Assembly: GCA_035277685.1 (NCBI GenBank)
Contig: DATEKA010000141.1
Location: forward strand, 2,280-66,279
Source of the DNA: Candidatus Acidiferrales bacterium
GTDB taxonomy: Bacteria > Acidobacteriota > Terriglobia > Acidiferrales > UBA7541
Reading direction: 5' to 3'
DNA length: 64,000 nt
Below are positions 5,755-31,110 of this stretch, piece by piece. The notes below the pieces were generated by a model. That model had not been told where the DNA came from, did not search any database, and saw only the letters and a program-made list of their open reading frames with translations. Positions within the stretch are counted from its first letter, which is position 1, and every line of letters starts with the position of its first letter. Made by a program: the position numbers and the translations under genes.

Positions 5755-5807
5755 GACCCGCCAGAAATCAGAGTTGATGGTTAAGAGTTGAGAGCTAAGC
5801 CCACTGC

Positions 5808-14802: not shown

Positions 14803-15525
14803 ATGCAGATTCCGGTGATCGCCAGGGTGGTGTACTCGGCGGTTCGGCTGATCGGGCCCACGCTGCGTTTCGAGATCGTGGGCGTTCACAATGCGGTGCA
14901 AATCCGCGACCAGGGCGAGAAAGGAATCGGAGCGTTCTGGCACGGCTGCATCTTCCCCGCGGCGTGGTTCTGGCGGAATCGCGACATCGTGGTGATGAAC
15001 ACGGTGCATTTCGACGGTCAGTGGACCCGGCGCGTGATCGAGCGGCTCGGCTTCGGGACGGTGCAAGGAAGCTCGACGCGGGGCGGCGTGGAAGGGCTTG
15101 CGGGAATGTCGAAAAAACTGGAGGACGGGCATCACGTGGCTTTCACGATTGACGGACCACGCGGGCCGCGCTACGTGGCCAAACCCGGAGCGGTGATTCT
15201 GGCGCGCCGCACGGGCGCTCCCATTTCGGCATTCCACATTGCAGTGAAGAGGGGAATCACGTTCCACAGGGCGTGGGACTTGTTCCGGCTGCCATTCCCG
15301 TTTTCCCGCGCAGTAGTGTTCGTGGCTCCGCCCGTTCGCGTTCCAAGCGGCGCGGACGGCGAAATGATGAAGCGGAAACAAGAGGAATTGCAGAGGGCGT
15401 TGGACCGGGTGAGGGAGGCGGCGGAGTCGTGGTTCCAGTTATCGAAAGACGAGCGCGACGACTTATGGCACGAGTGGCGCGAGCAGGATGAGGATTTGAG
15501 AGACGCTGCGGCCGAGCCGGACTAG
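14803..15525 (+). CDS. DUF374 / lysophospholipid acyltransferase-like family protein
   Basis: Shows GAFWHGCIF...NTVHFDGQW..RVIERLGFGTVQGSSTRGG...HVAFTIDGPRGPRYVAKPGAVILARRTGAPI. The start is ambiguous: ATG 14803 is preferred over GTG 14701 because the latter leaves almost no divergent intergenic space. Confidence 0.7.
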   Translation: MQIPVIARVVYSAVRLIGPTLRFEIVGVHNAVQIRDQGEKGIGAFWHGCIFPAAWFWRNRDIVVMNTVHFDGQWTRRVIERLGFGTVQGSSTRGGVEGLAGMSKKLEDGHHVAFTIDGPRGPRYVAKPGAVILARRTGAPISAFHIAVKRGITFHRAWDLFRLPFPFSRAVVFVAPPVRVPSGADGEMMKRKQEELQRALDRVREAAESWFQLSKDERDDLWHEWREQDEDLRDAAAEPD

Positions 15526-16667: not shown

Positions 16668-16746
16668 CTGCAGTGACCATTCAAGAGCACGGGCCGGAGC
16701 GTGCCGGCCATATAGGCGCGGCCTCGAAAACAATTACGCACGGGCA

Positions 16747-17367
16747 TCAGGAAATGTTTCCACGAACCTCGGCCAGCTGATTCAGCCGGGCGATCAGGTT
16801 ATCGACTGCTTGCTGTGTTTGAGACAGAGACTTGGAGCAGTCAATGACATCGTCCGCCAGTTCGCGCTTATCGTCCATGGGCATTTGCGCGGAAATACGG
16901 GCTTGGGCCTGCTCCGGCGATAACCCCCGGCGCTCCAGGCGCTGAAGCTGCTGATCCGGGGGACACCAGCAGACAATGATGCGGTCGAGTTCCGTATGGT
17001 AGCCCGCCTCAAGAATAAGAGCGGCTTCCACGACGGCGAAGTGGGGACCGCCGGGACGGTCAAGGGCGTCGAACCATTTGCGGACGACATCCAGGATACG
17101 CGGATGGAGGATGGCATTGAGGCGCACTCGTTTGGCGGGGTCGGCGAAAATCACGGCAGCGAGCTTGGCGCGATCGATGGAGCCGCTGGAGGTGAGCGTT
17201 TCGCGACCGAACTCTCGCAGAACCTCGTTGTATGCCGGTTGACCGGGCTCAAGAAACCGATGGCCGATGGGATCCATTTCGAGCACGTCACATCCGCGGC
17301 TTCGCAGCATGGCGGCGACTGTGGATTTCCCCGAAGCGATGCCGCCGGTCAGGCCGACTCTCAGCAT
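16747..17367 (-). CDS. coaE: Dephospho-CoA kinase
   Basis: The sequence MLRVGLTGGIASGKSTVAAMLR (P-loop) has CoaE length and layout. Confidence 0.9.
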   Translation of the reverse strand: MLRVGLTGGIASGKSTVAAMLRSRGCDVLEMDPIGHRFLEPGQPAYNEVLREFGRETLTSSGSIDRAKLAAVIFADPAKRVRLNAILHPRILDVVRKWFDALDRPGGPHFAVVEAALILEAGYHTELDRIIVCWCPPDQQLQRLERRGLSPEQAQARISAQMPMDDKRELADDVIDCSKSLSQTQQAVDNLIARLNQLAEVRGNIS

Positions 17368-17372
17368 AGGGT

Positions 17373-18320
17373 TCAGCTGACAGACGCGCGGGCGACCGGA
17401 GTTCGAAGGCCACGGCGCAGCCGGGCAGCCTTTACGGTGTTGCTCATGAGCATGGCGATTGTGAGCGGCCCGACGCCGCCGGGAACGGGGGTAAAGGCGC
17501 CAGCGGTGTTGACGACGTCCGGATGGACGTCACCAACGAGGACTGAACGTTTAGCGCGGAATGTTTCGAGCTTTGTGGGGAAATTGGCGAAGATGCGCTC
17601 CGCCTCGATGGCGTCCGTGACCACGTTCTGGCCGACGTCGATGACGGTGGCGCCAGGACGGATGTAGCCGGAGGTGACCATTGCGGCGCGGCCCATGGCG
17701 GCGACGACGATATCAGCGCGGCGGACGGTGTCCTTCAGATCACGCGTCCTGGAGTGGCAAACGGTGACGGTGGCATTGGCGTGCATCAGCAGGATAGCCA
17801 TGGGCTTTCCGACGATGTCGCTGCGGCCCATTACGACTGCGTTGGCGCCTTCGAGTGGAATGTCGCTGCGGCGAAGAATTTCCATTACGCCCGCGGGCGT
17901 GCAGGCGACGAGATTCGGGCGTCCAGCAACGAGCTTGCCGACATTCATCGGGTGAAAGCCATCGACATCCTTGGCGGGATCAACGGCGTCGAGAATCTTT
18001 TTTGCGTCGATCTGATACGGTAAGGGCATCTGCACGAGGATGCCATCCACGTCGTCGCGACGGTTGAGGGCATCAACCGCGGCGAGCAAATCCTGAGTAG
18101 AAATCGAAGCCGGCGGGGTGAGCAGGAAACTGGCGAGGCCGAGTTTGCCGCAGGCGGCGATCTTGCTGTTTACGTAAAGCTTGGAGGCGGGATTGTCGCC
18201 AACCAGAACGGCAGCCAAACCGGGGCGTATTCCGGCGGCGGCGAGAGCGGCGATGTCAGCGGCCAACTCCGAGTAGATTTGGTCGCGGATTGCATTGCCG
18301 TCCAGAATGCGCGCGCCCAA
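17373..18320 (-). CDS. folD: Bifunctional methylenetetrahydrofolate dehydrogenase/cyclohydrolase
   Basis: Shows ILDGNAI...PGLAAVLVGDNPASKLYVNSK...DGILVQMPLP...DVDGFHP.N.G...PCTP.G...GRS.IVGKP...TVCHS..., the classic FolD pattern. TTG 18320 has AAGGAG 6 nt upstream, with an alternative ATG at 18362. The 591-aa track ORF extending to 19148 is an artefact. Confidence 0.9.
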   Translation of the reverse strand: MGARILDGNAIRDQIYSELAADIAALAAAGIRPGLAAVLVGDNPASKLYVNSKIAACGKLGLASFLLTPPASISTQDLLAAVDALNRRDDVDGILVQMPLPYQIDAKKILDAVDPAKDVDGFHPMNVGKLVAGRPNLVACTPAGVMEILRRSDIPLEGANAVVMGRSDIVGKPMAILLMHANATVTVCHSRTRDLKDTVRRADIVVAAMGRAAMVTSGYIRPGATVIDVGQNVVTDAIEAERIFANFPTKLETFRAKRSVLVGDVHPDVVNTAGAFTPVPGGVGPLTIAMLMSNTVKAARLRRGLRTPVARASVS

Positions 18321-18507
18321 GAGGAACTCCTTTTGGAAGATTTCGAGTGCTTGAAGACACATGATAGCACGCGCTATGCGCAGTTCGCGGCGACGGCGTA
18401 ACTCGAAAATATCACTTACCTGGAAAAGCTTGACAGGAGCCGCCGACATCTGCGTTATATAATATCGTTCGTTACCGAGATTGATCGCGAGGAAGGAGAT
18501 CACGCAC

Positions 18508-18735
18508 GTGCCCCGTTGTCCTGAATGCGACGCCGAAATCGACTTGGACGAAGATGAAGTGGAAGAAGGCGAAATCCTGAGCTGTCCCGAGTGCGATTCC
18601 GAGCTTGAAGTCACGCAGACCCATCCCGTGCACCTGATTCTCCTCTCCGACGAAGACGAGGAGGAAGACGAGGAAGAGGGAGACGGAGAGGAGTCGAAGG
18701 TGGAAGAAGAAGAGGAGGAGGAGGAAGAAGAGTGA
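18508..18735 (+). CDS. LysW-like zinc-ribbon protein with an unusually long poly-acidic tail
   Basis: VPRCPECDAEIDLDEDEVEEGEILSCPECDSELEV has the CPxC...CPxC ribbon and ELEV as in the amino-group carrier LysW. It is followed by about 35 residues that are almost all D/E and end in E10. GTG 18508 has GGAAGGAG 9 nt upstream, and the track start is TTG 18481. Confidence 0.6.
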   Translation: MPRCPECDAEIDLDEDEVEEGEILSCPECDSELEVTQTHPVHLILLSDEDEEEDEEEGDGEESKVEEEEEEEEEE

Positions 18736-19163
18736 CCCGTTTTCCCCAGTTCGCGCACGCAGCGCTGAATTCCAGCCGGAAACGCGGTGGCGGCGCGAAT
18801 CGTTCCTGGATGCTCATACTTGCCGCTGCGGTGACCCTTGCGTGCGTGACGCCGCCAAGCTACGCGCAGGACCAGCGGAACAGGCCTGAACTTCGAACGG
18901 TACACGGGACAGTGATCGACCAAAACGAAAATCCCGTTTCGACGAGCATCGTTTATTTGAAGAACATGAAAACGCAGGGAGTGAAGACCTATATCACGAG
19001 CGAAGATGGAATCTACCGGTTCAGCGGGCTCGATCCAAACGTGGATTATCAAGTCCACGCGGAACACAACGATCTGACTTCGTCTTCGCACACGATTTCC
19101 AGCTACGATTCCCGCCGTGACATCGACATGCCGTTGAAGCTCTCTCACAAGAAAGAGCGTTAG
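18732..19163 (+). CDS. Small secreted carboxypeptidase-regulatory-like (CarboxypepD_reg) domain protein
   Basis: Signal peptide ...MLILAAAVTLACVTPPSYAQ. The mature part is HGTVIDQNENPVSTSIVYLKNMKTQGVKTYITSEDGIYRFSGLDPNVDYQVHAEHN, a typical CarboxypepD_reg fold signature. The GTG start overlaps the upstream TGA (GTGA), and the upstream poly-Glu codons (GAGGAGGAGGAGGAA) act as its SD. Confidence 0.65.
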   Translation: MTRFPQFAHAALNSSRKRGGGANRSWMLILAAAVTLACVTPPSYAQDQRNRPELRTVHGTVIDQNENPVSTSIVYLKNMKTQGVKTYITSEDGIYRFSGLDPNVDYQVHAEHNDLTSSSHTISSYDSRRDIDMPLKLSHKKER

Positions 19164-20491: not shown

Positions 20492-22918
20492 ATGGAAACA
20501 TCTTCTGCTCTCTTTGAACTAGCAACTGTGTCGCTGGCCTGCCGCGACAGGGATACCTTTCTAAAAAACTTCAGCACACGCATAGGAGGGGAGCTTGGGG
20601 CGAAGGCCGTCCTGGTGTGGACGGTGAATCCGGCGGCGGAAGAAATCGAGTTCGTCTGCGGGATTTCGTGGGCGCACCCGGGCGAACATTTCACGCCGAG
20701 CGAGGAACGGGTTCGCGACGGACTCCTCTCGGAGGCGTGCGCTTCAACGGGAGCGCGGCGAATTACCCCCGGAGACTTCGCCAACGACGATTTTTCGCAC
20801 CTGGATGAGACGAGTCGCGGGCACGTGCGCAGCGGGCTGTATGCACAGATTCCGGGTGTCGGCGGTCCGGAAGGCGTCATCGAGGTACTGAACAAGCGGA
20901 GCGGCGAGTTCACAGCGGAGGACGGCCGTTTTCTCGAGGAAGCGGCGCGTATAGCCGGCCAGGTGCTTACGAACCTTGCCGGAATCGAAAGCGAGAGGCA
21001 ATCGAACTTCGCGGCGCTCGAGCGGCTTACGTCTCTCTACGACCTGGGGCGAACGTTCACCTCGACGCTCGAACTGGAAGAACTGCTCCCAATCGTTGCC
21101 GGGAAAATAAGAGACATTTTGGGAGCGGGCGCGTGCAACCTCTGGCTCGCGGACGCAGGGGAACTTCGTTTCGCGCAACAGGCCGGCGAAGATCCCAGCG
21201 TCGAAGAGGGGGCAACGGCTCCGCTGGAGGAAGACCTTTTCGGGGAGCTGATGCGGCAGGGCGTTCCTAAACTGATCGAGGACGCCACTGAGGAGGCACA
21301 ACTCGAGAAAAGACGGAGGGCAGCAGCGGATCTGGAGATTGCGACGTGGATGGCAGCCCCGCTGCGAAAGGATGACGAAATCCTTGGAGTGGTGGAGGTC
21401 ATCAACAAGGCCGATGGAGGACGGTTCAACGACGAGGACCTGTTCTTTCTTACGAGCATCAGCGAGCAGGCAGCGACGGCGCTGCACAACGCGAAGCTAC
21501 TCGAGTCCGAGCGGAAGCTGCATACGCTGGATGCGCTGCTGAAGATTTCGCAGGAAATTACGTCAACGCTGGATCTGGATCACGTGCTGACAACGGTGGT
21601 TCAACAAGCTGGATCGATTATCCCGTTCGATCGATGCGTCATCGGGTTCTTCGACCGCGGGCGATTCGTGCTGGGCGCCGTTTCGGGCGAAGAGGAAGTG
21701 CCCAAAACACGCGAGATGCAGGAGCTGCGGGAGCGGCTGGAGTGGGCGGCCGAAGAGCAAGAGAACGTCTGGGCGGACCGGTACGAAGACGGATGGCATG
21801 TGGGACAGGAGGCGACAAACGCGCAATTCGTTCCCTTCCTGGAAGCCCATGAGTACAACGGGCTCTATATTCTGCCGTTGCGAGACGAACAAGGCACGCT
21901 GGGAGCGATGTCGCTGCTGAGCGGGGACGCGGATTTCCTTACGGCGAGCAACAAAGAAACTCTCGCGATCCTGGCAAACCAGACGACAGTCGCGATACGG
22001 AACGCGCAACTATACCAGCAGGTTCCGCTGGCGAATCTGTTGCAACCCCTGGCCCAACGAAAGCAGCGATTGCTGGCGGCGGTGCCCCAGGGACGTTGGC
22101 GGACGTACGCAGAGCGAATCGCTGCCGTCGCTGCGATCTTGTTTGTGATTCCGTGGCCGTTGCGCGTCGGTACGGACGCGACTGTTGTGCCCGCGCAGAG
22201 GCGCGTTGTCAGCTCGATTCAGGGAGGAATCGTCAGGCAGGTGTTTGTACGCGAAGGCGAAAGTGTTCGCGAGGGGCAGGTACTGGCGCAACTGGACGCG
22301 AGCGATGATCGCGTGAAATTGGCGCGAGCGGAAGCCGCTCTGGCACAAACCGAGCGTGCGCTGTCGGACGCGGAGTTTCACAACGACCCGGCGGCAGCGA
22401 GCGATGCCAAGATCCAGAGCGACGTTCACCGAGCCGAGGTGGCGTTCGAGAACCAGCGCATCGAGGAAGCGCAGTTGCGCTCTCCAATAGCGGGCACTAT
22501 CGTGACCCCGAAAGTGGAAGAGAAGGCCGGAACGATGCTCCAGCCGGGCGGAAGTTTCTGCGAAGTAGTGGCACAGGATGAGATGGCGGCGGAAATGAGC
22601 GTCCCGGAAACGGACCTGCCGCTGCTGAAGCCGGGAAATCACGTGTCCTTGAAGCTGAACGCGTATCCGGAAACGACATTCGAGGGTGTGGTCGAGCGAA
22701 TTGGGGCTCAAACAAAATCGGATAGTGGAGAACAGTATTTTCTGGTTCGCGCCATTTTCAGAAATACCGGGGATCGCGCGCGCGATGGAATGGCTGGGAG
22801 AGCGCGCGTACGCGCAGGGGGCGGATGGTTTCGGAGTCAGTGGCACCCGATCGGCTATGTAATTCTACGCGCGCCGTTCCGGTGGATTTGGGAAAAAGCC
22901 TGGTCCTGGTTGCCTTAG
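20492..22918 (+). CDS. Triple-GAF / single-TM / HlyD-type membrane-fusion (periplasmic adaptor) fusion protein
   Basis: 808 aa. It has three GAF-like blocks (e.g. GVIEVLNKRSGEFTAEDGRFLEEAA, GVVEVINKADGGRFNDEDLFFLTSISEQAA, LGAMSLLSGDADFLTASNKETLAILANQ). A TM helix (IAAVAAILFVIPWPL) follows. Then comes a barrel-sandwich/lipoyl motif (VREGESVREGQVLAQLD), a short coiled coil and a beta-barrel typical of HlyD. Confidence 0.8.
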   Translation: METSSALFELATVSLACRDRDTFLKNFSTRIGGELGAKAVLVWTVNPAAEEIEFVCGISWAHPGEHFTPSEERVRDGLLSEACASTGARRITPGDFANDDFSHLDETSRGHVRSGLYAQIPGVGGPEGVIEVLNKRSGEFTAEDGRFLEEAARIAGQVLTNLAGIESERQSNFAALERLTSLYDLGRTFTSTLELEELLPIVAGKIRDILGAGACNLWLADAGELRFAQQAGEDPSVEEGATAPLEEDLFGELMRQGVPKLIEDATEEAQLEKRRRAAADLEIATWMAAPLRKDDEILGVVEVINKADGGRFNDEDLFFLTSISEQAATALHNAKLLESERKLHTLDALLKISQEITSTLDLDHVLTTVVQQAGSIIPFDRCVIGFFDRGRFVLGAVSGEEEVPKTREMQELRERLEWAAEEQENVWADRYEDGWHVGQEATNAQFVPFLEAHEYNGLYILPLRDEQGTLGAMSLLSGDADFLTASNKETLAILANQTTVAIRNAQLYQQVPLANLLQPLAQRKQRLLAAVPQGRWRTYAERIAAVAAILFVIPWPLRVGTDATVVPAQRRVVSSIQGGIVRQVFVREGESVREGQVLAQLDASDDRVKLARAEAALAQTERALSDAEFHNDPAAASDAKIQSDVHRAEVAFENQRIEEAQLRSPIAGTIVTPKVEEKAGTMLQPGGSFCEVVAQDEMAAEMSVPETDLPLLKPGNHVSLKLNAYPETTFEGVVERIGAQTKSDSGEQYFLVRAIFRNTGDRARDGMAGRARVRAGGGWFRSQWHPIGYVILRAPFRWIWEKAWSWLP

Positions 22919-22926
22919 GCGAAAAC

Positions 22927-23880
22927 ATGAAAACGAAAAGCTCAATGTGGCTAATGGCGAGTGGCGTCCTTGCGCTCGCGGCTTGGGGGTGCGGTGGTTC
23001 GCCGGGAACGGTAAATGCAAACACCGCATCTTCCGCTCCCGCGGTGGCCGCTTCCGGTGCTCCGCCTGCGACGGTGGCGTCCGCCGATGCGAGAGTTCCA
23101 GGCGCGGGCGATATTCTCAGCGTTCTATCGGTCGAGCATCAGGTGGATCTTGCCTCGGAACGCGACGGAGTGGTCCTCTCGATCGCGAAGGACGAAGGAA
23201 GCGCGGTGAAGGCGGGGGACGTTCTGGCGCAGCTCGACGACCGCGACCTGCAGATGCAACTCGTCAAGGCGCGAGATGACCTTCAGGTAGCGCAGAACAA
23301 TGTGCGATACAAAGAAGCCGAATTAAAAGCGAAGAATGCCGCTTACAAGCGGCAACAGGAATTGCGGCACTATGGCCTTTCAAGCGAAGCTGACCTGGAG
23401 CAAGCGCAGTTCGAGGCCAAAGGCGCGGAATACGATGTGCACGGCTGGGAGGCCCTTGTTGAGAGTAGCCAGGCGGAGATCCGGAGAATTCAACTTGGAA
23501 TCGACCAGATGCGTATACATGCGCCGTTCTCGGGGGTAGTGGTGAGTCGCTTCATCCGGGAAGGCGAAGCGCTGAAGAAAGGCGACCGATGCTTCCGCGT
23601 GAGTCAGCTAGGTCCGCTGCAGGTGCGCTTTCAGATTCCGGAGTCGTCTCCGGTGCGCCCGGAACGCGGAGCGGCTGTGAGGCTTTCGCTGGTGAGCGAC
23701 GCGAACCACTCACTCAAAGCGAAAATTGTCAAAATCAGCCCGACCGTTGATCCCGCCAGCGACAGCTACGACGTGGTGGCGCAGCTCGAGCGGGCGCAGC
23801 ATTCGAGCTTGCTCCCGGGGATGGCGGTTCGCGTCCATTGGCCGGGAACAGGGGTAACGAGCGAAAGGAACAGGCCGTAA
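22927..23880 (+). CDS. HlyD-family periplasmic adaptor lipoprotein
   Basis: ATG 22927 gives MKTKSSMWLMASGVLALAAWGCGG (lipobox). It shows DEGSAVKAGDVLAQLDDRDLQ, a coiled-coil hairpin, and IHAPFSGVVVSRFIREGEALKKGD. Confidence 0.85.
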   Translation: MKTKSSMWLMASGVLALAAWGCGGSPGTVNANTASSAPAVAASGAPPATVASADARVPGAGDILSVLSVEHQVDLASERDGVVLSIAKDEGSAVKAGDVLAQLDDRDLQMQLVKARDDLQVAQNNVRYKEAELKAKNAAYKRQQELRHYGLSSEADLEQAQFEAKGAEYDVHGWEALVESSQAEIRRIQLGIDQMRIHAPFSGVVVSRFIREGEALKKGDRCFRVSQLGPLQVRFQIPESSPVRPERGAAVRLSLVSDANHSLKAKIVKISPTVDPASDSYDVVAQLERAQHSSLLPGMAVRVHWPGTGVTSERNRP

Positions 23881-23890
23881 CGGGAATCGC

Positions 23891-26035
23891 ATGCGGTTTG
23901 GGGCGACAAGGCTTCAGATTTCGAGCGTGCTGGCGAAGGGCCTGCGGCGGCCGAAATTGCGTTCCGATCTGCGAATCAGCGAGCAGACGGTGGCAGGTGA
24001 GAAAAGCTATGTCATCAAGGTTGCGGAGACCAATTCATATAACCGATATGGGGAAACGGAATACGAGCTGCTCACATTGTGCGACGGGACGCGCACAGCG
24101 GCAGAAGTTGGCGAAGAGCTGAACCGGCGACATCCGGACGAGCCGCTACCCGAATCCGAGGTGCTCGATTTTCTGGACGGCATCGAGCCCGCCATGTGGG
24201 AGCGAAGCGTCGGCGAGAAGAACCTCGCCGTGCTGGAGCGTATCCGCGATGAACGAAAGGGGCGCCTCGATCAATCAAGCGCTCTCTATATAAGTTTCAA
24301 GGCCTGGGACCCCGACAAGTTTCTGTCCCGAATCGACCCCTACCTGAGCTGGATTTTCACTCCAGGATTTGTGGCCGCTTCCTGCCTGTTGTTCATTGTG
24401 TGCGGGTACCTGCTCGCGGGTGATTGGACCAGGGTGGCGAACGACACCAGGGCCCTCTACTCGTTCCAAAACAAGACCGCGTATGACATTTGGGTCTTCT
24501 GGCTGATTCTGCTTGTGGTCGGGGGAATTCATGAGTGCGGGCACGGATTGACTTGCAAGCACTTTGGCGGCGACGTCCACCAGATGGGCTTCATGCTGAT
24601 TTATTTCACGCCGGCATTTTTCACGGACACGACCGATATCGTCTTGTTCCAGGAGGGCAGCCGCCGGCAGTGGGTAATCTTCGCGGGAATCTGGATCGAA
24701 CTGACGGTGTGCGCGATTTCGACGCTGATCTGGCATTTCACGCTTGCGGGATCGCCGATCAATGACCTGGCATACAAAGCGATGCTCCTCAGCGGAATAC
24801 AGGGGGCGCTGCTCAACCTGAATCCTTTGATCAAGGCAGACGGCTATTATGCGCTGGCGCAATTTCTGGACATAGACAACCTGCGCGAGGACTCGTTCAC
24901 ATTTTTGCGCGCTCTCGCCCGGAAGTACGCGCTGCGTGAGGACATTGACTTGCCAAAGGCCAGCCGGCGGCTGCGCCGCATCTACGTAATTTTCGGGCTC
25001 GCCGCAATCACCTACAGCACAACGCTGATTCTGCTGGTGCTGGGATTTGTGAAGAACATATTCGTCGAGAAATTCGGGGACTGGGGATACGTCCTTACGC
25101 TGGCTGTCGCCTACTTCTTCGCGCGGAAGGGGTTGAAGAAGGCGTTCCCTGCCATTCGCGCCTGGTGGCGAGAGAAGAGGGAGGTGTACATGGCGTGGAA
25201 AATGACGCGCGCACAGCAGATTGGGGCTCTGGCGATCGGATTCCTATTGGTGGTACCGCCGTTTCCGTCGCGCGTGTCCTCGGACTTCATTCTTGAACCC
25301 GGAAGCGACGCGCACGTTCGAGCGGCAGTGCCCGGGCGCGTGGACCGGGTCTTCGTGCATGAAGGAGATCATGTGGCGGCGGGCCAACTGCTTGCGATCC
25401 TGGAGAATCCAGACATCACAAAGAGTGAGCGAGTGCTCAGCCAAGAACTTGCGCTGGCGAGCGGCCTGGTCCGAACCGGCCAGCAAAGCCCGGAAAAGAA
25501 GAGTCCCGCCGGGGCAATTCGGGAGCGTAAGCGCCTCCAAGAGGAGTTCGCGGTGGCCCAGCAAAGGGCAGGCGAATTGGAGATTCGCGCACCGCATGAG
25601 GGAGTTGTTACAACACCCAACGTTGACCGAAAGGCGGGTGAGTTCTTGAGTGCGGGGGGCGAGTTCTGCCGCATCGTTGACCGCAACACGATGAAGGCCC
25701 GCATCCTGGTGCGCGATTGGGAGTTGGACAGGATACATGCCGGGGCCGGGGTTCAAATGAAGGTCGCGGCGTTTCCTTTCCACACATACTCGGGCACGGT
25801 AGAGCAGATCCTACCGGCTGCGGCTAACGACGAACCCGTCTCTCACCCTCAGCGCCAGGAGCGGCTCGGGCAGGAACTGAGCAACTATTTTGGCGTCGTG
25901 GTGGATTTCATGAATCCGGACGGATCCCTTCGCGAGGGAATGACGGGAATCGCGAAAGTTTACTGCGGAAGGTCGCCGTTGGCGTGGAAAGCCGTCCGGG
26001 GCGCGTGGAGATGGATGCGATCTCAAGTTTGGTGA
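23891..26035 (+). CDS. PqqD-like (RRE-like) domain / M50 site-2-type zinc metalloprotease / HlyD-domain fusion protein
   Basis: 714 aa. The N-terminal 100 aa (PKLRSDLRISEQTVAGEKSYVIKVAETNSYNRYGETEYELLTLCDGTRTAAEVGEELNRRH...VLDFLDGIE) fits the PqqD pattern. The polytopic core carries HECGHGLTCKHFGG (HExxH). The C-terminus is an HlyD module (VHEGDHVAAGQLLAILENPD, IRAPHEGVVTTP). Confidence 0.8.
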   Translation: MRFGATRLQISSVLAKGLRRPKLRSDLRISEQTVAGEKSYVIKVAETNSYNRYGETEYELLTLCDGTRTAAEVGEELNRRHPDEPLPESEVLDFLDGIEPAMWERSVGEKNLAVLERIRDERKGRLDQSSALYISFKAWDPDKFLSRIDPYLSWIFTPGFVAASCLLFIVCGYLLAGDWTRVANDTRALYSFQNKTAYDIWVFWLILLVVGGIHECGHGLTCKHFGGDVHQMGFMLIYFTPAFFTDTTDIVLFQEGSRRQWVIFAGIWIELTVCAISTLIWHFTLAGSPINDLAYKAMLLSGIQGALLNLNPLIKADGYYALAQFLDIDNLREDSFTFLRALARKYALREDIDLPKASRRLRRIYVIFGLAAITYSTTLILLVLGFVKNIFVEKFGDWGYVLTLAVAYFFARKGLKKAFPAIRAWWREKREVYMAWKMTRAQQIGALAIGFLLVVPPFPSRVSSDFILEPGSDAHVRAAVPGRVDRVFVHEGDHVAAGQLLAILENPDITKSERVLSQELALASGLVRTGQQSPEKKSPAGAIRERKRLQEEFAVAQQRAGELEIRAPHEGVVTTPNVDRKAGEFLSAGGEFCRIVDRNTMKARILVRDWELDRIHAGAGVQMKVAAFPFHTYSGTVEQILPAAANDEPVSHPQRQERLGQELSNYFGVVVDFMNPDGSLREGMTGIAKVYCGRSPLAWKAVRGAWRWMRSQVW

Positions 26036-26054: not shown

Positions 26055-26089
26055 AAAAAAAGAGGTCGCCGCGGTGGAACGGCGACCTC
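26055..26089 (-). terminator. Rho-independent terminator closing the minus-strand micro-ORF cluster
   Basis: There is a perfect 9-bp stem GAGGTCGCC/GGCGACCTC (26062-26070 / 26081-26089) with a 10-nt loop. On the minus strand it is followed by T7 (26061-26055). On the plus strand no T-run follows. Confidence 0.65.
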
Positions 26090-26186: not shown

Positions 26187-26300
26187 TCAGGGCACGCGGC
26201 GAAGCATTTGAACCGTGAGCGGTTGCTTCTTTTCGAGCTTCTTTCCGGCTTTCAACTTCCTTGCCGGTTTGACGGGTTTTGATTTGGCTTTCATGCTCAT
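26187..26300 (-). CDS. Lys-rich micro-protein P1 (37 aa), paralogue of P2/P3
   Basis: My translation is MSMKAKSKPVKPARKLKAGKKLEKKQPLTVQMLRRVP*. It shares the GKKLEKKQ core with P2/P3. GAGAGA lies upstream, and the second ATG at 26294 is an alternative start. It is below the 60-aa cutoff, so it is absent from the track. Confidence 0.5.
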   Translation of the reverse strand: MSMKAKSKPVKPARKLKAGKKLEKKQPLTVQMLRRVP

Positions 26301-26468
26301 CTCTCTGCAAACGGCCCCAAGGCCCACGGCGAAAACCCGTGGACCTCGCCTCATCATCGCACAGCTCTGAGGGCAACAAAACCTCAGAGCTTACAGTTTC
26401 CGCCGCTATTAGGCCAAGCGGCAGAGGGTACAAGCCGCGAAGGGGTCCCTAGGGACCCTCCGGCAGCT

Positions 26469-26582
26469 TCAGTTGAACGGAGTCACTTTCGGGGCCCACT
26501 TGCTCTGCAGGGTCTGCTTCTTTTCGAGCTTCTTGCCCGAGGCCAGCTTCTTTCCCGACTTCACTGCTTTGCTCTTCGTCAT
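26469..26582 (-). CDS. Lys-rich micro-protein P2 (37 aa)
   Basis: My translation is MTKSKAVKSGKKLASGKKLEKKQTLQSKWAPKVTPFN*. The SD GAGGGAG lies 6 nt upstream. The listed ORF 26449..26631 is in a different frame. Confidence 0.55.
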   Translation of the reverse strand: MTKSKAVKSGKKLASGKKLEKKQTLQSKWAPKVTPFN

Positions 26583-26725: not shown

Positions 26726-26830
26726 CTAATTGAAGGTCATCAACGGCGTCTTGCTCTGCAGGGTCTGCTTCTTTTCAAGCTTCTTGCCAGCCGCCTTCCC
26801 GGACTTGATTGCCTTCGCTTTGCTTGCCAT
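26726..26830 (-). CDS. Lys-rich micro-protein P3 (34 aa)
   Basis: My translation is MASKAKAIKSGKAAGKKLEKKQTLQSKTPLMTFN*. It forms the C-terminal part of track ORF 26726..26968. The SD GAGGGG lies 7 nt upstream. A sigma-54-type promoter sits about 75 nt upstream. Confidence 0.6.
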   Translation of the reverse strand: MASKAKAIKSGKAAGKKLEKKQTLQSKTPLMTFN

Positions 26831-26904: not shown

Positions 26905-26920
26905 TGCAATCGGGGAGCCA
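26905..26920 (-). promoter_or_regulatory. Candidate sigma-54 (-24/-12) promoter
   Basis: The minus strand reads TGGCTC-CCCGA-TTGCA against the consensus TGGCAC-N5-TTGCW. The GG-N10-GC spacing is exact. It lies about 75 nt upstream of the P3 ATG and about 140 nt downstream of the bEBP stop codon. Confidence 0.6.
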
Positions 26921-27057: not shown

Positions 27058-28410
27058 CTACAGGCCGTGCTTCCGGCAAAGATAGTTCAGGCGGTTGCGA
27101 TCGATTCCGAGCAAGCGTGCGGCTTCGGTCTTCGTCTGTTTGGTCTGCAGGAGGGCTTCCTGGAGCCAGCGTTTCTCGAAATTCTCCAGTTCCTTATCCA
27201 GATCGATTCCGCCGGGAGGCAGCCGAAAGTGGCTTCGGGAATCGCGTGCATCGGCCTCGACGATTTCTCCCGGCAGATCTTTCAGGGCGATGTGCTCGCC
27301 ATCGGTCATGATGACCATTCTTTGAACAGCGTTCTCAAGCTCACGAACGTTCCCTGGCCATGTGTAATTTTTCAACGCTTGCATGGCATCGTCGCCGATG
27401 CGCTTGAGCGCCAAGCCGTTCGCGGCGCAATAAACGCTTACGAAATACTCCACCAGCAGGGGGATGTCGTCCACCCGGTCACGTAAGGCGGGAACGAAGA
27501 TGGGGACAACGTGAATGCGGTAGTAGAGGTCTTCGCGGAAGTGCCCGTCCCTCGTCATCTGCTCCAGATCCTCGTTTGTCGCGCTGATCAGGCGGAAATC
27601 AACTTTGATCTGCCTTTTACCGCCCAGCCGCGTGAGGGACCGCTCTTCGAGAACACGGAGCAGTTTGCTTTGCAAGGCGGGAGTGAGGGTGGCGATTTCG
27701 TCGAGGAAGAGTGTTCCAGTGTGGGCCAGTTCGATCCGCCCTTCCTTCATGGCAACGGCGCCGGTGAAGGCTCCCTTTTCATAGCCGAATAGCTCGGCTT
27801 CCATCAAACCTTCCGGCAGGGCGGCACAGTTCACACTGATAAAAGGACGGACCCGGCGAGGCCCCTGATCGTGCAGCGCGCGGGCGACGAGTTCTTTGCC
27901 AACGCCGCTTTCGCCGCGAATGATGACATTGGTCGTGGCGCGAGCCATGCGTTTGACCGAATCGAAAACATGGCGCATCGAATCCGTGGCGCCGATCAGA
28001 TCACCGAGGGCATGTTTGCGGCTGATCTCGTCGCGCAGGATGCGATTTTCGCGCTGGATGCGCAGCTTTTCGATGGCGCGTTCGAGAAGGTGACGCAGAA
28101 CGTCGGTATCGATGGGCTTGATAAAGTAATCGTACGAGCCGGCGTCGATGACTTTCAGGGCGCTGGATTTCCTGTCGTCAGAACTGAGGACGATGACCAG
28201 TGTGTCGATTTCGCTCCCTTGAAGGCGAGAAAGCAGCTCGGTGCACTCCTTGACGCCGCCAGAAGCGATGGGCAGGCCCAATAGAAGGACATCGAGCTCC
28301 GATTCCTGCAGGAGTTTATAGGCGGCGTTGTAGTCGTCGCCCTCGAGGATTTCGAAATCTGCTTTGAGGGCAGAACAGACCTTGGACCGCAGGTCCGCGT
28401 CGTCGTCCAC
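27058..28410 (-). CDS. Sigma-54-dependent transcriptional activator (NtrC-family bEBP) with a degenerate receiver domain
   Basis: The AAA+ core has GESGVGKE, GAFTGA (EKGAFTGA) and a Fis-type HTH (EAARLLGIDRNRLNYLCRKHGL). In the receiver, the phospho-acceptor position reads LDVLLLGLPIA, with Gly where Asp is expected. The annotated GTG start truncates beta-1, so the real start may be ATC 28446 (see findings). Confidence 0.85.
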   Translation of the reverse strand: MDDDADLRSKVCSALKADFEILEGDDYNAAYKLLQESELDVLLLGLPIASGGVKECTELLSRLQGSEIDTLVIVLSSDDRKSSALKVIDAGSYDYFIKPIDTDVLRHLLERAIEKLRIQRENRILRDEISRKHALGDLIGATDSMRHVFDSVKRMARATTNVIIRGESGVGKELVARALHDQGPRRVRPFISVNCAALPEGLMEAELFGYEKGAFTGAVAMKEGRIELAHTGTLFLDEIATLTPALQSKLLRVLEERSLTRLGGKRQIKVDFRLISATNEDLEQMTRDGHFREDLYYRIHVVPIFVPALRDRVDDIPLLVEYFVSVYCAANGLALKRIGDDAMQALKNYTWPGNVRELENAVQRMVIMTDGEHIALKDLPGEIVEADARDSRSHFRLPPGGIDLDKELENFEKRWLQEALLQTKQTKTEAARLLGIDRNRLNYLCRKHGL

Positions 28411-28662
28411 AATAGCAATCCTGGGATTCGAAGAGCCGGCGCCGATGGGTGACCTCCGGCAAGGGACACGCTGGATTCGTTCAAGCGATGGAGTGCCCCA
28501 AAGCTGCGGGGATTCTAGGTGCGCGTCCGGGAAGTGTCAACGGCGCTCGCGCCTGAGCGCATCAAGGGACAAATCGGAGCTGGCACTTGATTGAGAAGAA
28601 CAATTCGGCTAGCTTTTGAGCGGCGATTGATCGAATCTGTCCTGGTTTGCGCCGGAGCGCAT

Positions 28663-28998
28663 GTGAACATCGGAATCCGTAAAGCGGGTCGCGCTACGAT
28701 TCTCGATTTGAACGGCGCGTTGAAGCTCGGAGAGGCCGAAGAGGCGTTCCGGAGTCAAATCCAACAACTTGTCGATGCCGGAACGCCGCAGGTGGCGATC
28801 AACATGTCTGGAGTGACGGATCTGGACAGTTCTGGAATTGGCGCTCTTGTGCGTTCGTTTACGCTGCTGAAGAAATCCGGCGGCAAGTGCATCGTTTTCG
28901 CCCCGAACAAGCGCGTCCTGATGCTGCTCAAGATGGTGCGGCTGGACGCTGTGCTGTCCATCGTGGAAGATGAAGCGACTGCGCTGACTCGGATCTAG
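28663..28998 (+). CDS. STAS-domain anti-sigma-factor antagonist (SpoIIAA/RsbV-like)
   Basis: Shows ILDLNGALKLGEAEEAFRSQIQQLV...INMSGVTDLDSSGIGALV...GGKCIVFAPNKRVLMLLKMVRLDAVL, with the conserved DSSG serine present. GTG 28663 has GGAG 5 nt upstream, and the track ORF begins at 28591. Confidence 0.8.
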   Translation: MNIGIRKAGRATILDLNGALKLGEAEEAFRSQIQQLVDAGTPQVAINMSGVTDLDSSGIGALVRSFTLLKKSGGKCIVFAPNKRVLMLLKMVRLDAVLSIVEDEATALTRI

Positions 28999-29058: not shown

Positions 29059-31110
29059 TCATTCGGCTGCGAGCGTGCGAGTATTCTCGAGCTTTTCGGC
29101 CGGTCTATAGGCCGTTCCTGGCAACGTGACGACAACCCTTGTTCCCTTCCCGTCGGCGGAAATGAGCTCCATCTGTCCATGAAGTTGCACCACGCGCTCA
29201 CGAATACCTTGCAGGCCAACGCCCGGCGCCGGCCGCGCGGAATCCGAAGCGGGAGAATTGACAGGAATTCCAACGCCCTGATCGCATACCTCAAGCTGGA
29301 GGTCGCCGCTTGCGAGGCGGGATAAACGAACGCTGGCGGTGCTGCTCGCGGCGTGCCGATGAACATTCGTCAAGCATTCCTGGACAACGCGGAAGAGAGC
29401 GGTTTCGACATCCGTGGGAAGGCGGCCGATGGAGGGAGCTATGTCGACGTTGACGGCAATATTACTGCGTTTGGCGAAACCCTCCGCATACCAGACCACA
29501 GCCGACTCGAGACCGACTTCATCGAGCAGGGGAGGATGCAGGAGATGGGAAATCGTGCGAGTTTCGCTGATGGCAGTTTCGATCTGTTTGGTGGCATCCG
29601 CGAGGCGTTCCGTCACTTGAAAGTCGCCGGAGAGAGTCATGCTCAACAAGTCCAGACTCATTTTGGCGGCCACCAGATACTGGCCGAGACCGTCGTGAAG
29701 TTCCCGAGCGATCCTACGTCGCTCGTCATCCTGGCTCTGCATAAGGCGTCCAGACAGCCTGCGCAGCCGATCTTCTGCAACGCGTAGCTCGGAGGTTCGA
29801 GCGAAGACGCGAGTCTCAAGATCGTCGTGGGCGCGTTTGAGATCTTCCTCGGCGCGCTTCGTGCGTGTGATGTCGATGTTCAGACCGAAGATGCGGGCCA
29901 GCTTGCCAGTCGAATCGCGGTGGACACGGCCTCGGCTGTTGATCCAGCGAATTTCTCCGCTATCGATTCTCCGGATGCGAAATTCGATATCAAACGCGGG
30001 CCCTTCGGGCGGCAGACCGATAACTTCCGCCCCTTTGCGGTCCTCGGGCAGGACAAGATCGATCCAAGCCTGATAGGTTTTCGGGAATGTTCCGGGAACG
30101 AACCCGTATATCTGTTCAAGCTCCTCCGACCAAAAGTTGACTCCCGTCACGGCATTAAAATCGAATGCGCCGCAACGAGCGACTTTCTGAGCGAGGACCA
30201 GGCGCTCCTTCGTTTCCTCGAGGGCGCGGCGTATTTCGCGCTGCTCGTGGATATTGGTGCGCGCGCCGAACCAATGCTTGATGGCTCCGTTCGCATCGTG
30301 GATCGGCGTCACCTGGGTGAGAAACCAGCGGTAGACGCCATCAGCACCGCGCAGGCGGAATTCCATTTCGAAGGGACGTCCGGCCGCGATCGAAGCATCC
30401 CAAGCTTCGAAGACAACGCTTCTGTTTTCTGGAGCGACGTGGGACTTCCAGGTGGAACCGTTCGTCTCTTCCTTGGTGAGGCCAGTGTATTCATACCAGC
30501 GGTCGCTGTACCAGAGTATGGAGCCGGCGGGATCGGCCATCCACGTGAGTTGCGGGATCGAGTTGGCGAGGGTGCGGAACTGGGTCTCGCTCTGCTGCAA
30601 TTCGAGCGTACGTTCGCGGACACGCGATTCCAGTTCGAGATTCAGGCGCTCGAGCTGGCGGCTGGCGCGGTGCAAGTCGATGAAGACGCTAACGCGAGCG
30701 CGGAGGAGCTCGGGATTCACGGGCACGGAGATGTAGTCAACGGCGCCGCGTTCGTAACCCTTGACGCGATCGAGATCGGTCAAATGAATGGCGGAGATGA
30801 AAATAATGGCGGTACGCTGAAAGCGGGGATGGTCGCGGATCAGGCGGGCGGTCTCGAAGCCATCCATTTCGGGCATGCTGACGTCGAGCAGAATCACCGC
30901 GACATCGCTTAATTTCAGAAGTTTTTCGAGAGCCTCTCGACCCGACGTAGCCTGGATCAGATTCTCGTCCAGCTCTTCGAGCATGGCTTCGTAAGTGATG
31001 AGTTTCGAGGGCTGATCGTCAACGAGCAAGATGTTCATCTTTTGCTTTTGCGATGAATCCGTTCCCACTAGAACATCTTTGAAAACATTCCCGGTTTCAA
31101 TCATCGGCAT
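29059..31110 (-). CDS. REC-PAS-PAS-HisKA_3/HATPase sensor histidine kinase (NarX/LiaS-type DHp)
   Basis: It has an N-terminal receiver (ILLVDDQPS...ILLDVSMPEMDG...K), two PAS-like blocks and an H-box RRRIARELHDGLGQ (HisKA_3). The ATPase domain follows. Its ATG lies 1 nt after the upstream TGA (TGAcATG). Confidence 0.85.
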   Translation of the reverse strand: MPMIETGNVFKDVLVGTDSSQKQKMNILLVDDQPSKLITYEAMLEELDENLIQATSGREALEKLLKLSDVAVILLDVSMPEMDGFETARLIRDHPRFQRTAIIFISAIHLTDLDRVKGYERGAVDYISVPVNPELLRARVSVFIDLHRASRQLERLNLELESRVRERTLELQQSETQFRTLANSIPQLTWMADPAGSILWYSDRWYEYTGLTKEETNGSTWKSHVAPENRSVVFEAWDASIAAGRPFEMEFRLRGADGVYRWFLTQVTPIHDANGAIKHWFGARTNIHEQREIRRALEETKERLVLAQKVARCGAFDFNAVTGVNFWSEELEQIYGFVPGTFPKTYQAWIDLVLPEDRKGAEVIGLPPEGPAFDIEFRIRRIDSGEIRWINSRGRVHRDSTGKLARIFGLNIDITRTKRAEEDLKRAHDDLETRVFARTSELRVAEDRLRRLSGRLMQSQDDERRRIARELHDGLGQYLVAAKMSLDLLSMTLSGDFQVTERLADATKQIETAISETRTISHLLHPPLLDEVGLESAVVWYAEGFAKRSNIAVNVDIAPSIGRLPTDVETALFRVVQECLTNVHRHAASSTASVRLSRLASGDLQLEVCDQGVGIPVNSPASDSARPAPGVGLQGIRERVVQLHGQMELISADGKGTRVVVTLPGTAYRPAEKLENTRTLAAE

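Follow-up and report, generated by a model that had tools for sequence, protein, structure and literature searches.

How can three membrane adaptor proteins serve the cell envelope when no pump is encoded beside them? This question was raised by three consecutive plus-strand genes in the window, a 64,000-nucleotide stretch of contig DATEKA010000141.1 (assembly GCA_035277685.1) from a Candidatus Acidiferrales bacterium. The sequence-only reading described these genes as an operon of three HlyD-type adaptors, namely a protein with three GAF domains fused to HlyD, a lipoprotein HlyD, and a fusion of a PqqD-like domain, an M50 protease and HlyD, and suggested that they form a heteromeric periplasmic assembly around an intramembrane protease rather than around a transporter. 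The genes and their domain architecture were confirmed by the present analysis, whereas the interpretation was only partly supported, and the neighboring genes that give the system a possible function had been missed. These are three small leader-bearing peptide genes just downstream, their sigma-54-type promoter, a sigma-54 activator and a STAS gene (Table 1), which together point to an uncharacterized way of cutting, and probably exporting, peptides without the usual pump.

Domain architecture of the three adaptor genes

Open reading frame calls gave products of 808 aa (gene 1) and 714 aa (gene 3), and an internal ATG at 22927 yields a 317-aa product for gene 2, so that the intergenic gaps are 8 and 10 nt as first described. 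Pfam searches of gene 1 found three GAF stretches (GAF_2, E 3.8e-33) and the HlyD_D23 and HlyD_3 families (E 1.5e-17 and 1.6e-16), and hydropathy analysis found a single hydrophobic segment preceded by a basic stretch. Gene 2 matched HlyD_D23/HlyD_3 at E about 1e-17 and the NCBIfam model TIGR01730 (RND_mfp) at 149 bits against a cutoff of 94.9; its N-terminus, MKTKSSMWLMASGVLALAAWGC, looks like a lipoprotein signal when read by eye. The HlyD module of gene 3 matched at E 3.4e-16. A PDB profile search with the adaptor part gave E-values down to 3.8e-30, with the TriA-TriB fusion (6vej) as the top match, and all three proteins match the HlyD adaptor family by Pfam and NCBIfam. The Trp-rich C-terminal tails of genes 1 and 3 were also as first described; the tail is conserved across the family and modelled as a helix.

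The protease part of gene 3 is a divergent M50 member. The window protein scored only 19.9 bits against Peptidase_M50 (PF02163), below the Pfam gathering score of 27.2; however, 28 of 30 diverse relatives matched at E<0.01 (best E 9.6e-8), and H214, E215, H218, N309, P312, L313, D317 and G318, comprising the HExxH motif and the second zinc-ligand motif, are invariant in these 30 relatives and lie in predicted transmembrane helices. The best NCBIfam match was the daptide RRE-M50 protease NF041824, with 187 bits over residues 32-416, below the family cutoff of 300.

The PqqD-like assignment of the N-terminus remained below threshold in profile searches, with 20.8 bits against a cutoff of 46 for TIGR03859 (E 2.6e-4) and Pfam PqqD hits in only 2 of 30 relatives, but was supported by structure prediction. 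An AlphaFold (AF2) model of residues 1-135 (pLDDT about 90 over residues 21-100) has the three-stranded sheet (28-34, 37-44 and 49-54) followed by three helices (55-63, 70-80 and 88-97) that is expected of an RRE. In a Foldseek search, the six best hits, and 10 of the top 12, were RRE-containing proteins, led by PqqD (5sxy, prob 1.0) and by TbiB1 and other lasso-peptide B1 RREs bound to leaders, although the best E-value was only 6.7e-3 with a TM(target) of 0.63. The full-length model (pLDDT 82.8) places the RRE in the cytoplasm, followed by 7 TM helices and then the adaptor module. The latter matched MacA, MexA and AcrA with a Foldseek prob of 1.0 and superposed best on a MacA chimera carrying the MexA alpha-hairpin (4dk1, rmsd 2.7 A), suggesting that its hairpin is probably of MexA-like length. 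The Foldseek search of the full model returned only adaptor proteins, giving no independent structural check of the M50 fold, and no solved structure covers M50 plus an adaptor.

Table 1. Features of the adaptor locus and its flank, with positions in the 64,000-nucleotide window.
Position	Strand	Feature	Support
20492..22918	+	Gene 1: three cytoplasmic GAF domains, one TM helix (residues 543-561), periplasmic HlyD-type adaptor module, Trp-rich C-terminal tail	Pfam; TIGR01730 99 bits (cutoff 94.9); hydropathy; orthologue in 72 of 81 loci
22927..23880	+	Gene 2: small lipoprotein-like HlyD/RND_mfp adaptor (317 aa)	Pfam and NCBIfam; orthologue in 69 loci; reciprocal best hit of the small adaptor in proteobacterial modules
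23891..26035	+	Gene 3: cytoplasmic RRE (PqqD-like, about residues 28-96), 7-TM M50 metalloprotease (HExxH 214-218, NPLxxxDG 309-318), periplasmic HlyD module (about 458-695), amphipathic C-terminal helix	Pfam and NCBIfam; alignment; hydropathy; predicted structures
26062..26089	-	Intrinsic terminator-like hairpin with a T-run, which would end the peptide transcript(s)	11-bp stem, 8 G-C pairs, followed by TTTTTTT
26187..26294	-	pep1, 35 aa: MKAKSKPVKPARKLKAGKKLEKKQPLTVQMLRRVP	Member of the leader family found only in this gap across loci
26469..26582	-	pep2, 37 aa: MTKSKAVKSGKKLASGKKLEKKQTLQSKWAPKVTPFN; GAGGGAG ribosome-binding site upstream	Leader family, as for pep1
26726..26830	-	pep3, 34 aa: MASKAKAIKSGKAAGKKLEKKQTLQSKTPLMTFN	Open reading frame and comparison across loci
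26905..26920	-	Sigma-54-type -24/-12 element TGGCTCCCCGATTGCA, 74 nt upstream of the pep3 start codon	1 mismatch; equivalent element in 66 of 72 related loci
27058..28410	-	Sigma-54 enhancer-binding protein: receiver-like N-terminal domain (phospho-acceptor Asp replaced by Gly in this clade), AAA+ domain with GAFTGA (residue 213), HTH_8	Sigma54_activat E 2.4e-68; conserved downstream of gene 3 and convergent with it in 68 loci
28512..28540	-	Sigma-70-like promoter (TTGACA-17-TAGAAT) upstream of the activator gene	11 of 12 matches; consensus match only
28591..28998	+	STAS-domain protein (anti-sigma-antagonist type), divergent from the activator gene	Pfam STAS E 4.6e-16; a STAS gene accompanies the module in 45 loci

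Conservation of the gene set and absence of a conserved pump

Among 81 related loci, the three adaptor genes are conserved in order in roughly 70, even though the flanks otherwise differ, and the set comprised of the trio, the peptide gene(s) and the convergent sigma-54 activator likewise recurs in about 70 of the 81, down to about 30% identity (29-33% for the trio with its activator). No ABC, RND or MFS gene is conserved within 10 kb on either side: the ABC ATPase hits were 11 PstB and 5 scattered others, RND genes were seen in 5 loci and FtsX in 4, although loci of 20 kb cannot exclude a pump that is always paired with the trio from elsewhere in the genome. A profile search for TolC within the same distance gave no hits in the acidobacterial loci, with a model of limited sensitivity built from only five TolC sequences. 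Within the window, no ABC, RND, MFS or outer-membrane factor (OMF) gene adjoins the operon; two orphan MacB/FtsX-type permeases at 3139-8486, about 12 kb away and with no adjacent ATPase, are not conserved neighbors. The neighboring genes are housekeeping or regulatory, and no tailoring enzyme or immunity gene is present; an RsbW-like kinase accompanies the module in 9 loci.

The small lysine-rich peptide genes are convergent with gene 3 and are confined to the gap between gene 3 and the activator: the leader motifs gave 82 matches in 3.4 Mb of strand, all of them in this gap and on the minus strand. The -24/-12 elements were found in 66 of 72 gaps at a density of 1.25 per kb, against 0.14 per kb in the background and on the opposite strand (about 9-fold above background), and each is followed after about 40-80 nt by a ribosome-binding site and a peptide ORF. 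In the window itself, only one good element is seen for the three peptide genes, and the rpoN gene is not in the window. Few such elements were found upstream of gene 1, so the trio itself is probably not sigma-54-dependent. Codon-position entropy in the leader was 0.40 bits at positions 1+2 and 1.05 bits at position 3, as expected for a translated ORF. Whereas the window has three short paralogues, distant relatives have one peptide gene, which keeps a conserved leader (MSIQKKSLI...) followed by 6-20 hypervariable tandem repeats, and the leader class tracks the clade of gene 3; besides the leaders of pep1-3, the leaders considered include MSIQKKSLISTLKTTKKA, which has its own cognate RRE. When look-ups were started from the peptides, 2 of 3 peptide homologues landed between the activator and an M50-HlyD gene, while one weak homologue sits away from any M50-HlyD gene. 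The peptide homologues are all annotated as hypothetical, and an NCBIfam scan of the peptides gave nothing significant, a weak TigB hit (E 0.01) being a repeat artefact.

Two further classes of the family were identified. In a Nitrospira genome and two metagenome contigs, a solitary RRE-M50-HlyD protein (about 810 aa) is directly preceded by arrays of 51-67 aa ORFs with an 'EELEERIAP' leader. In five proteobacterial modules, including plasmid-borne ones, the order is TolC, small adaptor, HlyD and M50-HlyD, again without a pump, and the three adaptor classes are reciprocal best hits of those studied here. These modules sit next to giant proteins with an LEPR-XLL motif near the N-terminus (NF012209; 16.2 and 15.2 bits against a cutoff of 17), and no small leader-type ORFs were found beside them. 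A BLASTP comparison of the N-terminal domain of the middle proteobacterial HlyD protein with the third GAF domain of gene 1 found nothing, and a GAF-adaptor fusion conserved across phyla is therefore not claimed. The leaders of the present family (LEKKQTL, IQKKSLI) and the Nitrospira-type 'LEERIAP' share a loose [IL]-[EQ]-x-[KR] core with LEPR-XLL, but the resemblance of the acidobacterial leaders is a short pattern with no statistical support, and no function is published for the motif.

A proposed leader-guided processing module

The best reading of these results, which we hold at a probability of about 0.5, is that the locus is a sigma-54-controlled, leader-guided peptide processing and (probably) export module built around an intramembrane protease. 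In this view, the activator would turn on the -24/-12 promoters in front of the small precursor genes, the cytoplasmic RRE of gene 3 would bind the conserved leader, and the fused M50 metalloprotease would cut the precursor. The HlyD modules of all three genes would form a mixed periplasmic adaptor assembly seated on the protease, handing the product towards an OMF encoded elsewhere, with the GAF domains of gene 1 providing a cytoplasmic input that gates the assembly. The analysis itself establishes the domain content, the predicted membrane topology, the conserved gene set, the promoters, and that the peptide ORFs are under selection at the amino-acid level; the binding of the leader by the RRE, cleavage, the heteromeric ring, export, its energy source, and the role of the peptides (signal or cationic antimicrobial) are inferred from what is entirely comparative or predictive evidence. 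Several points weigh against this reading in addition to the sub-threshold RRE and M50 scores. Without an energizing transporter, export of hydrophilic polycationic peptides against the membrane potential has no obvious driving force, and M50 proteases classically cut transmembrane helices, which these peptides lack. The failure to detect a TolC-like gene within 10 kb in the acidobacterial loci, the lack of a tailoring enzyme or immunity gene, the weak peptide homologue located away from any M50-HlyD gene, and the single good -24/-12 element for the three peptide genes of the window also count against it.

RRE-M50 fusions have a precedent as the peptidase associated with daptide gene clusters (10.1101/2023.03.08.531785), and the daptide protease MpaP (NF041824) and YydH/LiaK (NF058609) share with gene 3 an N-terminal RRE, a polytopic HExxH M50 protease and several adjacent small precursor genes. 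A daptide cluster was nevertheless rejected, because the score is below the family cutoff, decarboxylase, aminotransferase and methyltransferase genes are absent, and the peptides end in P, N and N rather than Thr; moreover, the protease here is fused to an adaptor, accompanied by two others, and has no ABC exporter nearby. A RiPP cluster in the strict sense was likewise rejected, as no tailoring enzyme occurs among the conserved neighbors. In class II microcin and bacteriocin type I secretion (the PCAT CvaB with the adaptor CvaA and TolC), a small unmodified precursor also carries an N-terminal leader removed by a peptidase built into the inner-membrane component, and an adaptor bridges to a TolC-type duct; the present locus has no ABC transporter, C39 peptidase or double-glycine leader, uses an M50 metalloprotease with an RRE, has three different adaptors instead of one, and in Acidobacteria has no OMF gene detected locally. 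TriABC-OpmH provides a precedent for a hetero-oligomeric adaptor ring, but TriAB surround an RND pump, whereas here no pump is present and one adaptor is fused to a protease. Peptide pheromones made by site-2 proteases of the Eep/RseP type are also small secreted peptides generated by an M50 intramembrane protease, but those substrates are lipoprotein signal peptides already in the membrane, are exported by a separate ABC transporter, and involve no RRE and no adaptor. Searches of the literature on M50 proteases with HlyD, GAF, RiPP or TolC components, on RREs with HlyD proteins, on sigma-54 in Acidobacteria, and on DUF4347 and LEPR-XLL proteins found no description of the system, although the literature searched was incomplete and this is not proof of absence.

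Alternative explanations were considered less likely. The module may be a regulated-proteolysis signalling device in which the protease destroys or matures the peptides inside the cell, for example to tune the activator or the STAS partner-switching proteins, with the adaptor modules acting as periplasmic or envelope sensors or as scaffolds. M50/S2P proteases are classic signalling proteases, regulators are conserved neighbors, the activator in this clade needs an input other than phosphorylation of the missing Asp, gene 1 carries GAF sensor domains, and no energy source for export was found; this possibility is nonetheless considered unlikely, because three adaptor modules, one with a probably MexA-like hairpin, would be an odd choice for a sensor, the orthologous proteobacterial module is in an operon with a TolC-family gene and adjoins giant, repeat-rich proteins that look like surface or secreted proteins, and hypervariable multi-repeat cores behind a conserved leader are typical of exported products rather than intracellular regulators.

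Less likely still is that the trio are ordinary accessory adaptors of a conventional pump and OMF encoded elsewhere, with the M50 part acting only as a leader peptidase, as YydH does next to YydIJ. The adaptor modules are bona fide, hetero-adaptor pumps exist, Acidobacteria carry many orphan MacB-type permeases, and only 10 kb on each side were inspected, but no pump is conserved near about 80 acidobacterial loci or in the five proteobacterial modules, although the latter keep TolC, and the 7-TM protease fused to the adaptor occupies the membrane position where a pump would sit. Similarly improbable is that the small ORFs are merely adjacent members of the sigma-54 regulon and that the real substrates are other proteins, such as the large surface proteins of the proteobacterial modules. 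The peptide genes are convergent with the trio rather than co-transcribed with it, the proteobacterial modules lack similar ORFs, and any similarity between the leaders and LEPR-XLL rests on a short pattern only; on the other hand, the strict confinement of the peptide family to this gap, the change of leader class together with the gene 3 clade, the leader-peptide arrays beside the Nitrospira-type class, and the presence of an RRE, which implies a peptide ligand, all speak for a link.

Conclusions

A more far-reaching and doubtful possibility is that RRE-M50-HlyD proteins, alone or with two further adaptors and TolC, define a previously unrecognized trans-envelope secretion route lacking an ABC, RND or MFS motor, in which cargo would be selected by an N-terminal leader of the LEPR-XLL, LEERIAP or KKLEKKQTL kind, bound by the RRE and clipped by the intramembrane protease, and would range from 25-residue peptides (this window) to 4,000-8,000-residue adhesins (E. 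coli and Burkholderia plasmids). Two tractable systems carry the module: the cultured isolate Granulicella sp. S190 (L037 among the related loci) has it in full, and IncF plasmids of E. coli, as in NZ_CP104683, carry the TolC variant with an LEPR-XLL/DUF4347 giant protein.

If the proposed reading is right, a large and widespread protein family, with at least 1,277 50%-identity clusters at E<=1e-30 and annotated today only as 'efflux adaptor' or 'site-2 protease', would mark a new way to mature and move peptides and proteins across the Gram-negative envelope without a known motor. It would give a testable role to the unexplained LEPR-XLL motif of giant proteins, and it would reveal a hidden class of sigma-54-controlled, hypervariable, often multi-copy peptides in Acidobacteria, a dominant but poorly understood soil phylum, where they could be signals or cationic antimicrobials.

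Confirmation of the three-gene operon

The re-examination confirmed the observation made in the sequence-only reading, namely that three consecutive plus-strand genes separated by gaps of 8 and 10 nt each end in an HlyD-type adaptor module. The gene 1 product contains three GAF stretches together with matches to HlyD_D23/HlyD_3/Biotin_lipoyl_2 and a single hydrophobic helix at residues 543-561, whereas the gene 2 product is an RND_mfp-type adaptor (TIGR01730, 149 bits) whose signal sequence ends in AWGC. The gene 3 product carries the adaptor module in its C-terminal part. Its Pfam M50 match is weak (19.9 bits), while its match to NF041824, the RRE-fused daptide M50 protease, is strong but below the family cutoff (187 bits over residues 32-416). 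In an alignment of 30 relatives spanning 26-67% identity, the HExxH and NPLxxxDG motifs are invariant, and 28 of the 30 hit Pfam M50.

The PqqD-like domain that had been proposed for the N-terminus of gene 3 is only sub-threshold by HMM; however, a structural model of residues 1-135 shows three strands followed by three helices, and the best PDB matches of this model are PqqD and leader-bound lasso-peptide RREs. Hydropathy and the positive-inside rule place the RRE in the cytoplasm, followed by seven TM segments, with the adaptor module in the periplasm. The similar Trp-rich tails that had been noted at the ends of genes 1 and 3 read as claimed, and the tail is conserved in the family as a basic/aromatic terminal helix.

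Coordinates of the features in the window and in related loci (loci fetched for comparison are designated by L numbers)
Sequence	Coordinates	Strand	Feature
Window	3139-5754	minus	First of two tandem duplicated MacB_PCD/FtsX permeases (871 and 892 aa)
Window	5808-8486	minus	Second of the two tandem permeases
Window	17373-19148	minus	FolD ORF, 591 aa as called
Window	20492-22918	plus	Gene 1, 808 aa
Window	22927-23880	plus	Gene 2, 317-aa product from the ATG at 22927
Window	23891-26035	plus	Gene 3, 714 aa
Window	26062-26089		Terminator-like hairpin following the peptide genes
Window	26187-26294	minus	pep1, MKAKSKPVKPARKLKAGKKLEKKQPLTVQMLRRVP
Window	26364-26390		Perfect 9-bp stem (GCTCTGAGG…CCTCAGAGC) between pep2 and pep1
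Window	26432-26469		Palindrome (GGGTCCCTAGGGACCC) right after the pep2 stop
Window	26469-26582	minus	pep2, MTKSKAVKSGKKLASGKKLEKKQTLQSKWAPKVTPFN
Window	26726-26830	minus	pep3, MASKAKAIKSGKAAGKKLEKKQTLQSKTPLMTFN
Window	27058-28410	minus	Sigma-54 enhancer-binding protein (activator)
Window	28591-28998		STAS-domain gene, divergent from the activator
Window	29059-31110		Receiver-PAS-HisKA_3 kinase following the hybrid sensor kinase
Window	31112-36886	minus	Hybrid sensor kinase, 1,924 aa
L001 (closest relative)	14978-18886		Transposase genes inserted between the activator and the STAS gene
L094	8056-8864		Array of 51-67 aa leader ORFs
L095	1775-2650 and 8094-8778		Arrays of 51-67 aa leader ORFs, two arrays 6 kb apart
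L096	8343-8783		Array of 51-67 aa leader ORFs

Peptide genes and inferred sigma-54 control downstream of gene 3

The 1-kb stretch downstream of gene 3, which the sequence-only reading had passed over, is not empty. Three small genes with good ribosome-binding sites (pep1, pep2 and pep3) lie there convergent with gene 3, and a sigma-54-type element, TGGCTCCCCGATTGCA, sits 74 nt upstream of pep3. The stem between pep2 and pep1 and the palindrome after pep2 may be processing or attenuation signals within a pep3-pep2-pep1 transcript. Immediately upstream on the same strand is the sigma-54 enhancer-binding protein, with Sigma54_activat matching at E 2.4e-68, GAFTGA at residue 213 and HTH_8. In its receiver-like domain, Gly occupies the position where the phospho-acceptor Asp should be (…LDVLLLGLP…), as judged against an approximate NtrC reference sequence; the clade of the window has Gly or Ala at this position, whereas about half of the orthologues (36 of 70) keep Asp, suggesting that the input to the activator in this clade is probably not phosphorylation.

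The other flanks consist of housekeeping genes (DAGK/YegS, FolD, CoaE, a DegP-like protease) and large sensor kinases. The hybrid sensor kinase contains nine HAMP domains, a GAF domain, HisKA/HATPase and three receiver domains, and similar kinases flank only a few related loci. In the called FolD ORF the FolD domains start only at residue 282; the long N-terminal extension is either an over-called GTG start or an unrecognised fused domain. The two tandem permeases are of the "acidobacterial duplicated orphan permease" type; they have no ABC ATPase gene next to them, lie about 12 kb from the trio, and are not conserved neighbours.

Conservation of the gene set

A search with residues 1-450 of gene 3 against 1.84 billion representatives found 9,423 relatives, 1,277 of them at E<=1e-30; most of the best hits are 680-840 aa long and are therefore RRE-M50-HlyD fusions. 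Eighty loci were fetched from species-representative genomes, almost all of them Acidobacteriota and including the isolate Granulicella sp. S190. According to tblastn, gene 1, gene 2 and gene 3 occur in the same order with a convergent activator 0.4-2.5 kb downstream in nearly every locus long enough to show it, both in the 45-85% identity tier and in a second tier at about 30% identity. In the closest relative (L001, 85% identity), transposase genes are inserted between the activator and the STAS gene; therefore, the order of peptide, activator and STAS genes tolerates insertions.

Clustering of the neighbouring genes showed that the only widely conserved partners are gene 3 (79 loci), gene 1 (72), gene 2 (69), the activator (68) and a STAS protein (45), while an RsbW-like kinase occurs in 9 loci. 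No transporter is conserved among these loci: the ABC ATPases are 11 PstB orthologues of a neighbouring pst operon plus 5 scattered ones, RND appears in 5 loci and FtsX permeases in 4, and no TolC-like ORF was detected within 10 kb with an HMM of limited sensitivity built from five TolC sequences. In one subclade (loci L002, L006, L007, L010-L015, L018 and L023), a complete pst-phoU phosphate-uptake operon sits immediately upstream of the STAS gene and the trio.

A peptide family tied to the gap between gene 3 and the activator

Elements of the -24/-12 type were found on the minus strand of the gap in 66 of 72 loci, amounting to 92 sites in 73.7 kb as compared with 0.14 per kb in the background and 10 sites on the opposite strand. 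In the closer tier, the ORFs downstream of these promoters are 23-40 aa peptides of the form MAKKTLKKSKKLEATKPL plus a short variable tail. In the distant tier, they are 64-149 aa proteins with a conserved leader (M-S/A-I-Q-K-K-S-L-I-x-x-L-x-x-x-K-K-A) followed by 6-20 tandem repeats of 3-8 residues. Nearly all repeat units contain one Lys or Arg, and the units differ from species to species (LAKGT, NLATK, PGAFK, ARVTPG, KLGTHG, GLKGGA, APGGRGVS and others). The most repeat-rich members seen are the unusually long precursors of 146 and 149 aa in loci L031 and L032, which carry 14-20 copies of APGGRGV(S/N) or GLKGGA after a Lys-rich leader.

Regular expressions for the leaders match 82 times in 3.4 Mb of strand, and every match lies in this gap on this strand. 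The third codon positions of the leader vary 2.6 times more than positions 1 and 2 while the residues stay fixed, as expected for a translated ORF. When the search was instead started from the peptides, two of three homologues fell between an activator and an M50-HlyD/MFP/GAF-HlyD/STAS set. The peptides match no curated family, and their database homologues are unnamed. Combined, these results show a real peptide family tied to this position.

The wider family of gene 3

On proteobacterial plasmids and chromids (E. coli IncF, Citrobacter, Kosakonia, Burkholderia, Azospirillum, Magnetospirillum), the homologous M50-HlyD gene ends a four-gene run of a TolC-family protein, a small MFP (about 250-290 aa), an HlyD (about 430-480 aa) and RRE-M50-HlyD, with no pump present (loci L083, L084, L085, L086 and L087, of which L086 is the E. 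coli IncF plasmid NZ_CP104683). Reciprocal BLASTP pairs gene 1 with the mid-size HlyD, gene 2 with the small MFP and gene 3 with M50-HlyD; the three adaptors are therefore three old orthologous classes. In three of the five modules examined (E. coli, Kosakonia and Burkholderia), the gene just upstream encodes a giant Ig-like or DUF4347 protein (over 2,300 to about 4,450 aa), with DUF4347 carried by the E. coli and Burkholderia proteins. The N-terminus of these proteins carries ALEPRxLFDGA, which is the LEPR-XLL motif of NCBIfam, hit just under its cutoff.

A third class (about 810 aa, with a long hairpin) was seen in Nitrospira, Rokubacteria and Methylomirabilales relatives. Its gene stands alone but is directly preceded by arrays of three or four 51-67 aa ORFs that share the leader M..L.L.VEELEERIAP and have Gly/Asn/Pro-rich cores, as observed in a Nitrospira genome and two metagenome contigs (L094, L095 and L096). 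Across the family, the common denominator is RRE-M50-HlyD plus neighbouring genes with a conserved N-terminal leader. The leaders share a loose [IL]-[EQ]-x-[KR] core (LEKKQTL in the window, IQKKSLI, LEPRxLL, LEERIAP), although this is a resemblance only, with no statistic behind it.

Predicted structure of the gene 3 product

The full-length model of gene 3 (pLDDT 82.8) shows the RRE, a linker helix and a helical membrane domain with a beta-hairpin at 232-245, followed by the adaptor with hairpin helices 507-532 and 539-561 and then a terminal helix. A Foldseek search with this model found only adaptors, the best superposition (rmsd 2.7 A) being on a MacA chimera that carries the MexA hairpin, and nothing in the PDB covers both the protease and the adaptor (TM on the query <=0.30). 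By sequence profile, the adaptor is closest to TriAB, MacA, EmrA and HlyD, whereas the M50 part barely touches MjS2P.

Interpretation and comparison with known systems

The analysis establishes the parts of the locus, the conserved gene set, the promoters, and that the peptide ORFs are under selection; how these parts work together is inferred. In the favored reading, to which a probability of about 0.5 is assigned, the activator would drive the peptide genes, the RRE would bind their leader and the M50 domain would cut them. The three adaptor modules would then assemble on the protease and pass the product to an OMF encoded elsewhere, with the GAF domains of gene 1 providing a cytoplasmic gate. 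The weak points of this reading are that no energy source was found, that the substrates are hydrophilic rather than membrane-embedded, and that no OMF was detected locally. A proteolytic signalling device without export is a possible but less likely alternative; an ordinary adaptor set whose pump lies elsewhere is considered unlikely, and slightly less likely still is that the peptides are unrelated neighbours.

In function, the proposed system resembles leader-dependent peptide secretion by PCAT/MFP/TolC systems as well as the RRE-M50 leader peptidases of daptide and epipeptide clusters. It is not a member of either. It lacks the ABC/C39 component, the double-glycine leader, the tailoring enzymes and the family-level HMM score. 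Hetero-adaptor rings have a precedent in TriABC. Literature searches, which covered the published record only in part, found no paper describing an M50-adaptor system or the function of LEPR-XLL.

The earlier interpretation, that three different adaptors suggest a heteromeric periplasmic assembly around an intramembrane protease rather than around a transporter, is supported in part, the heteromeric assembly itself being inferred, and it is extended by the peptide genes, their inferred sigma-54 control and the cross-phylum module. On the favored reading, the locus would be leader-guided peptide maturation merged with a tripartite-type adaptor assembly, two kinds of system that are each already known. 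There is in addition a substantial chance, although short of an even one, that it marks a new, motor-less secretion route.
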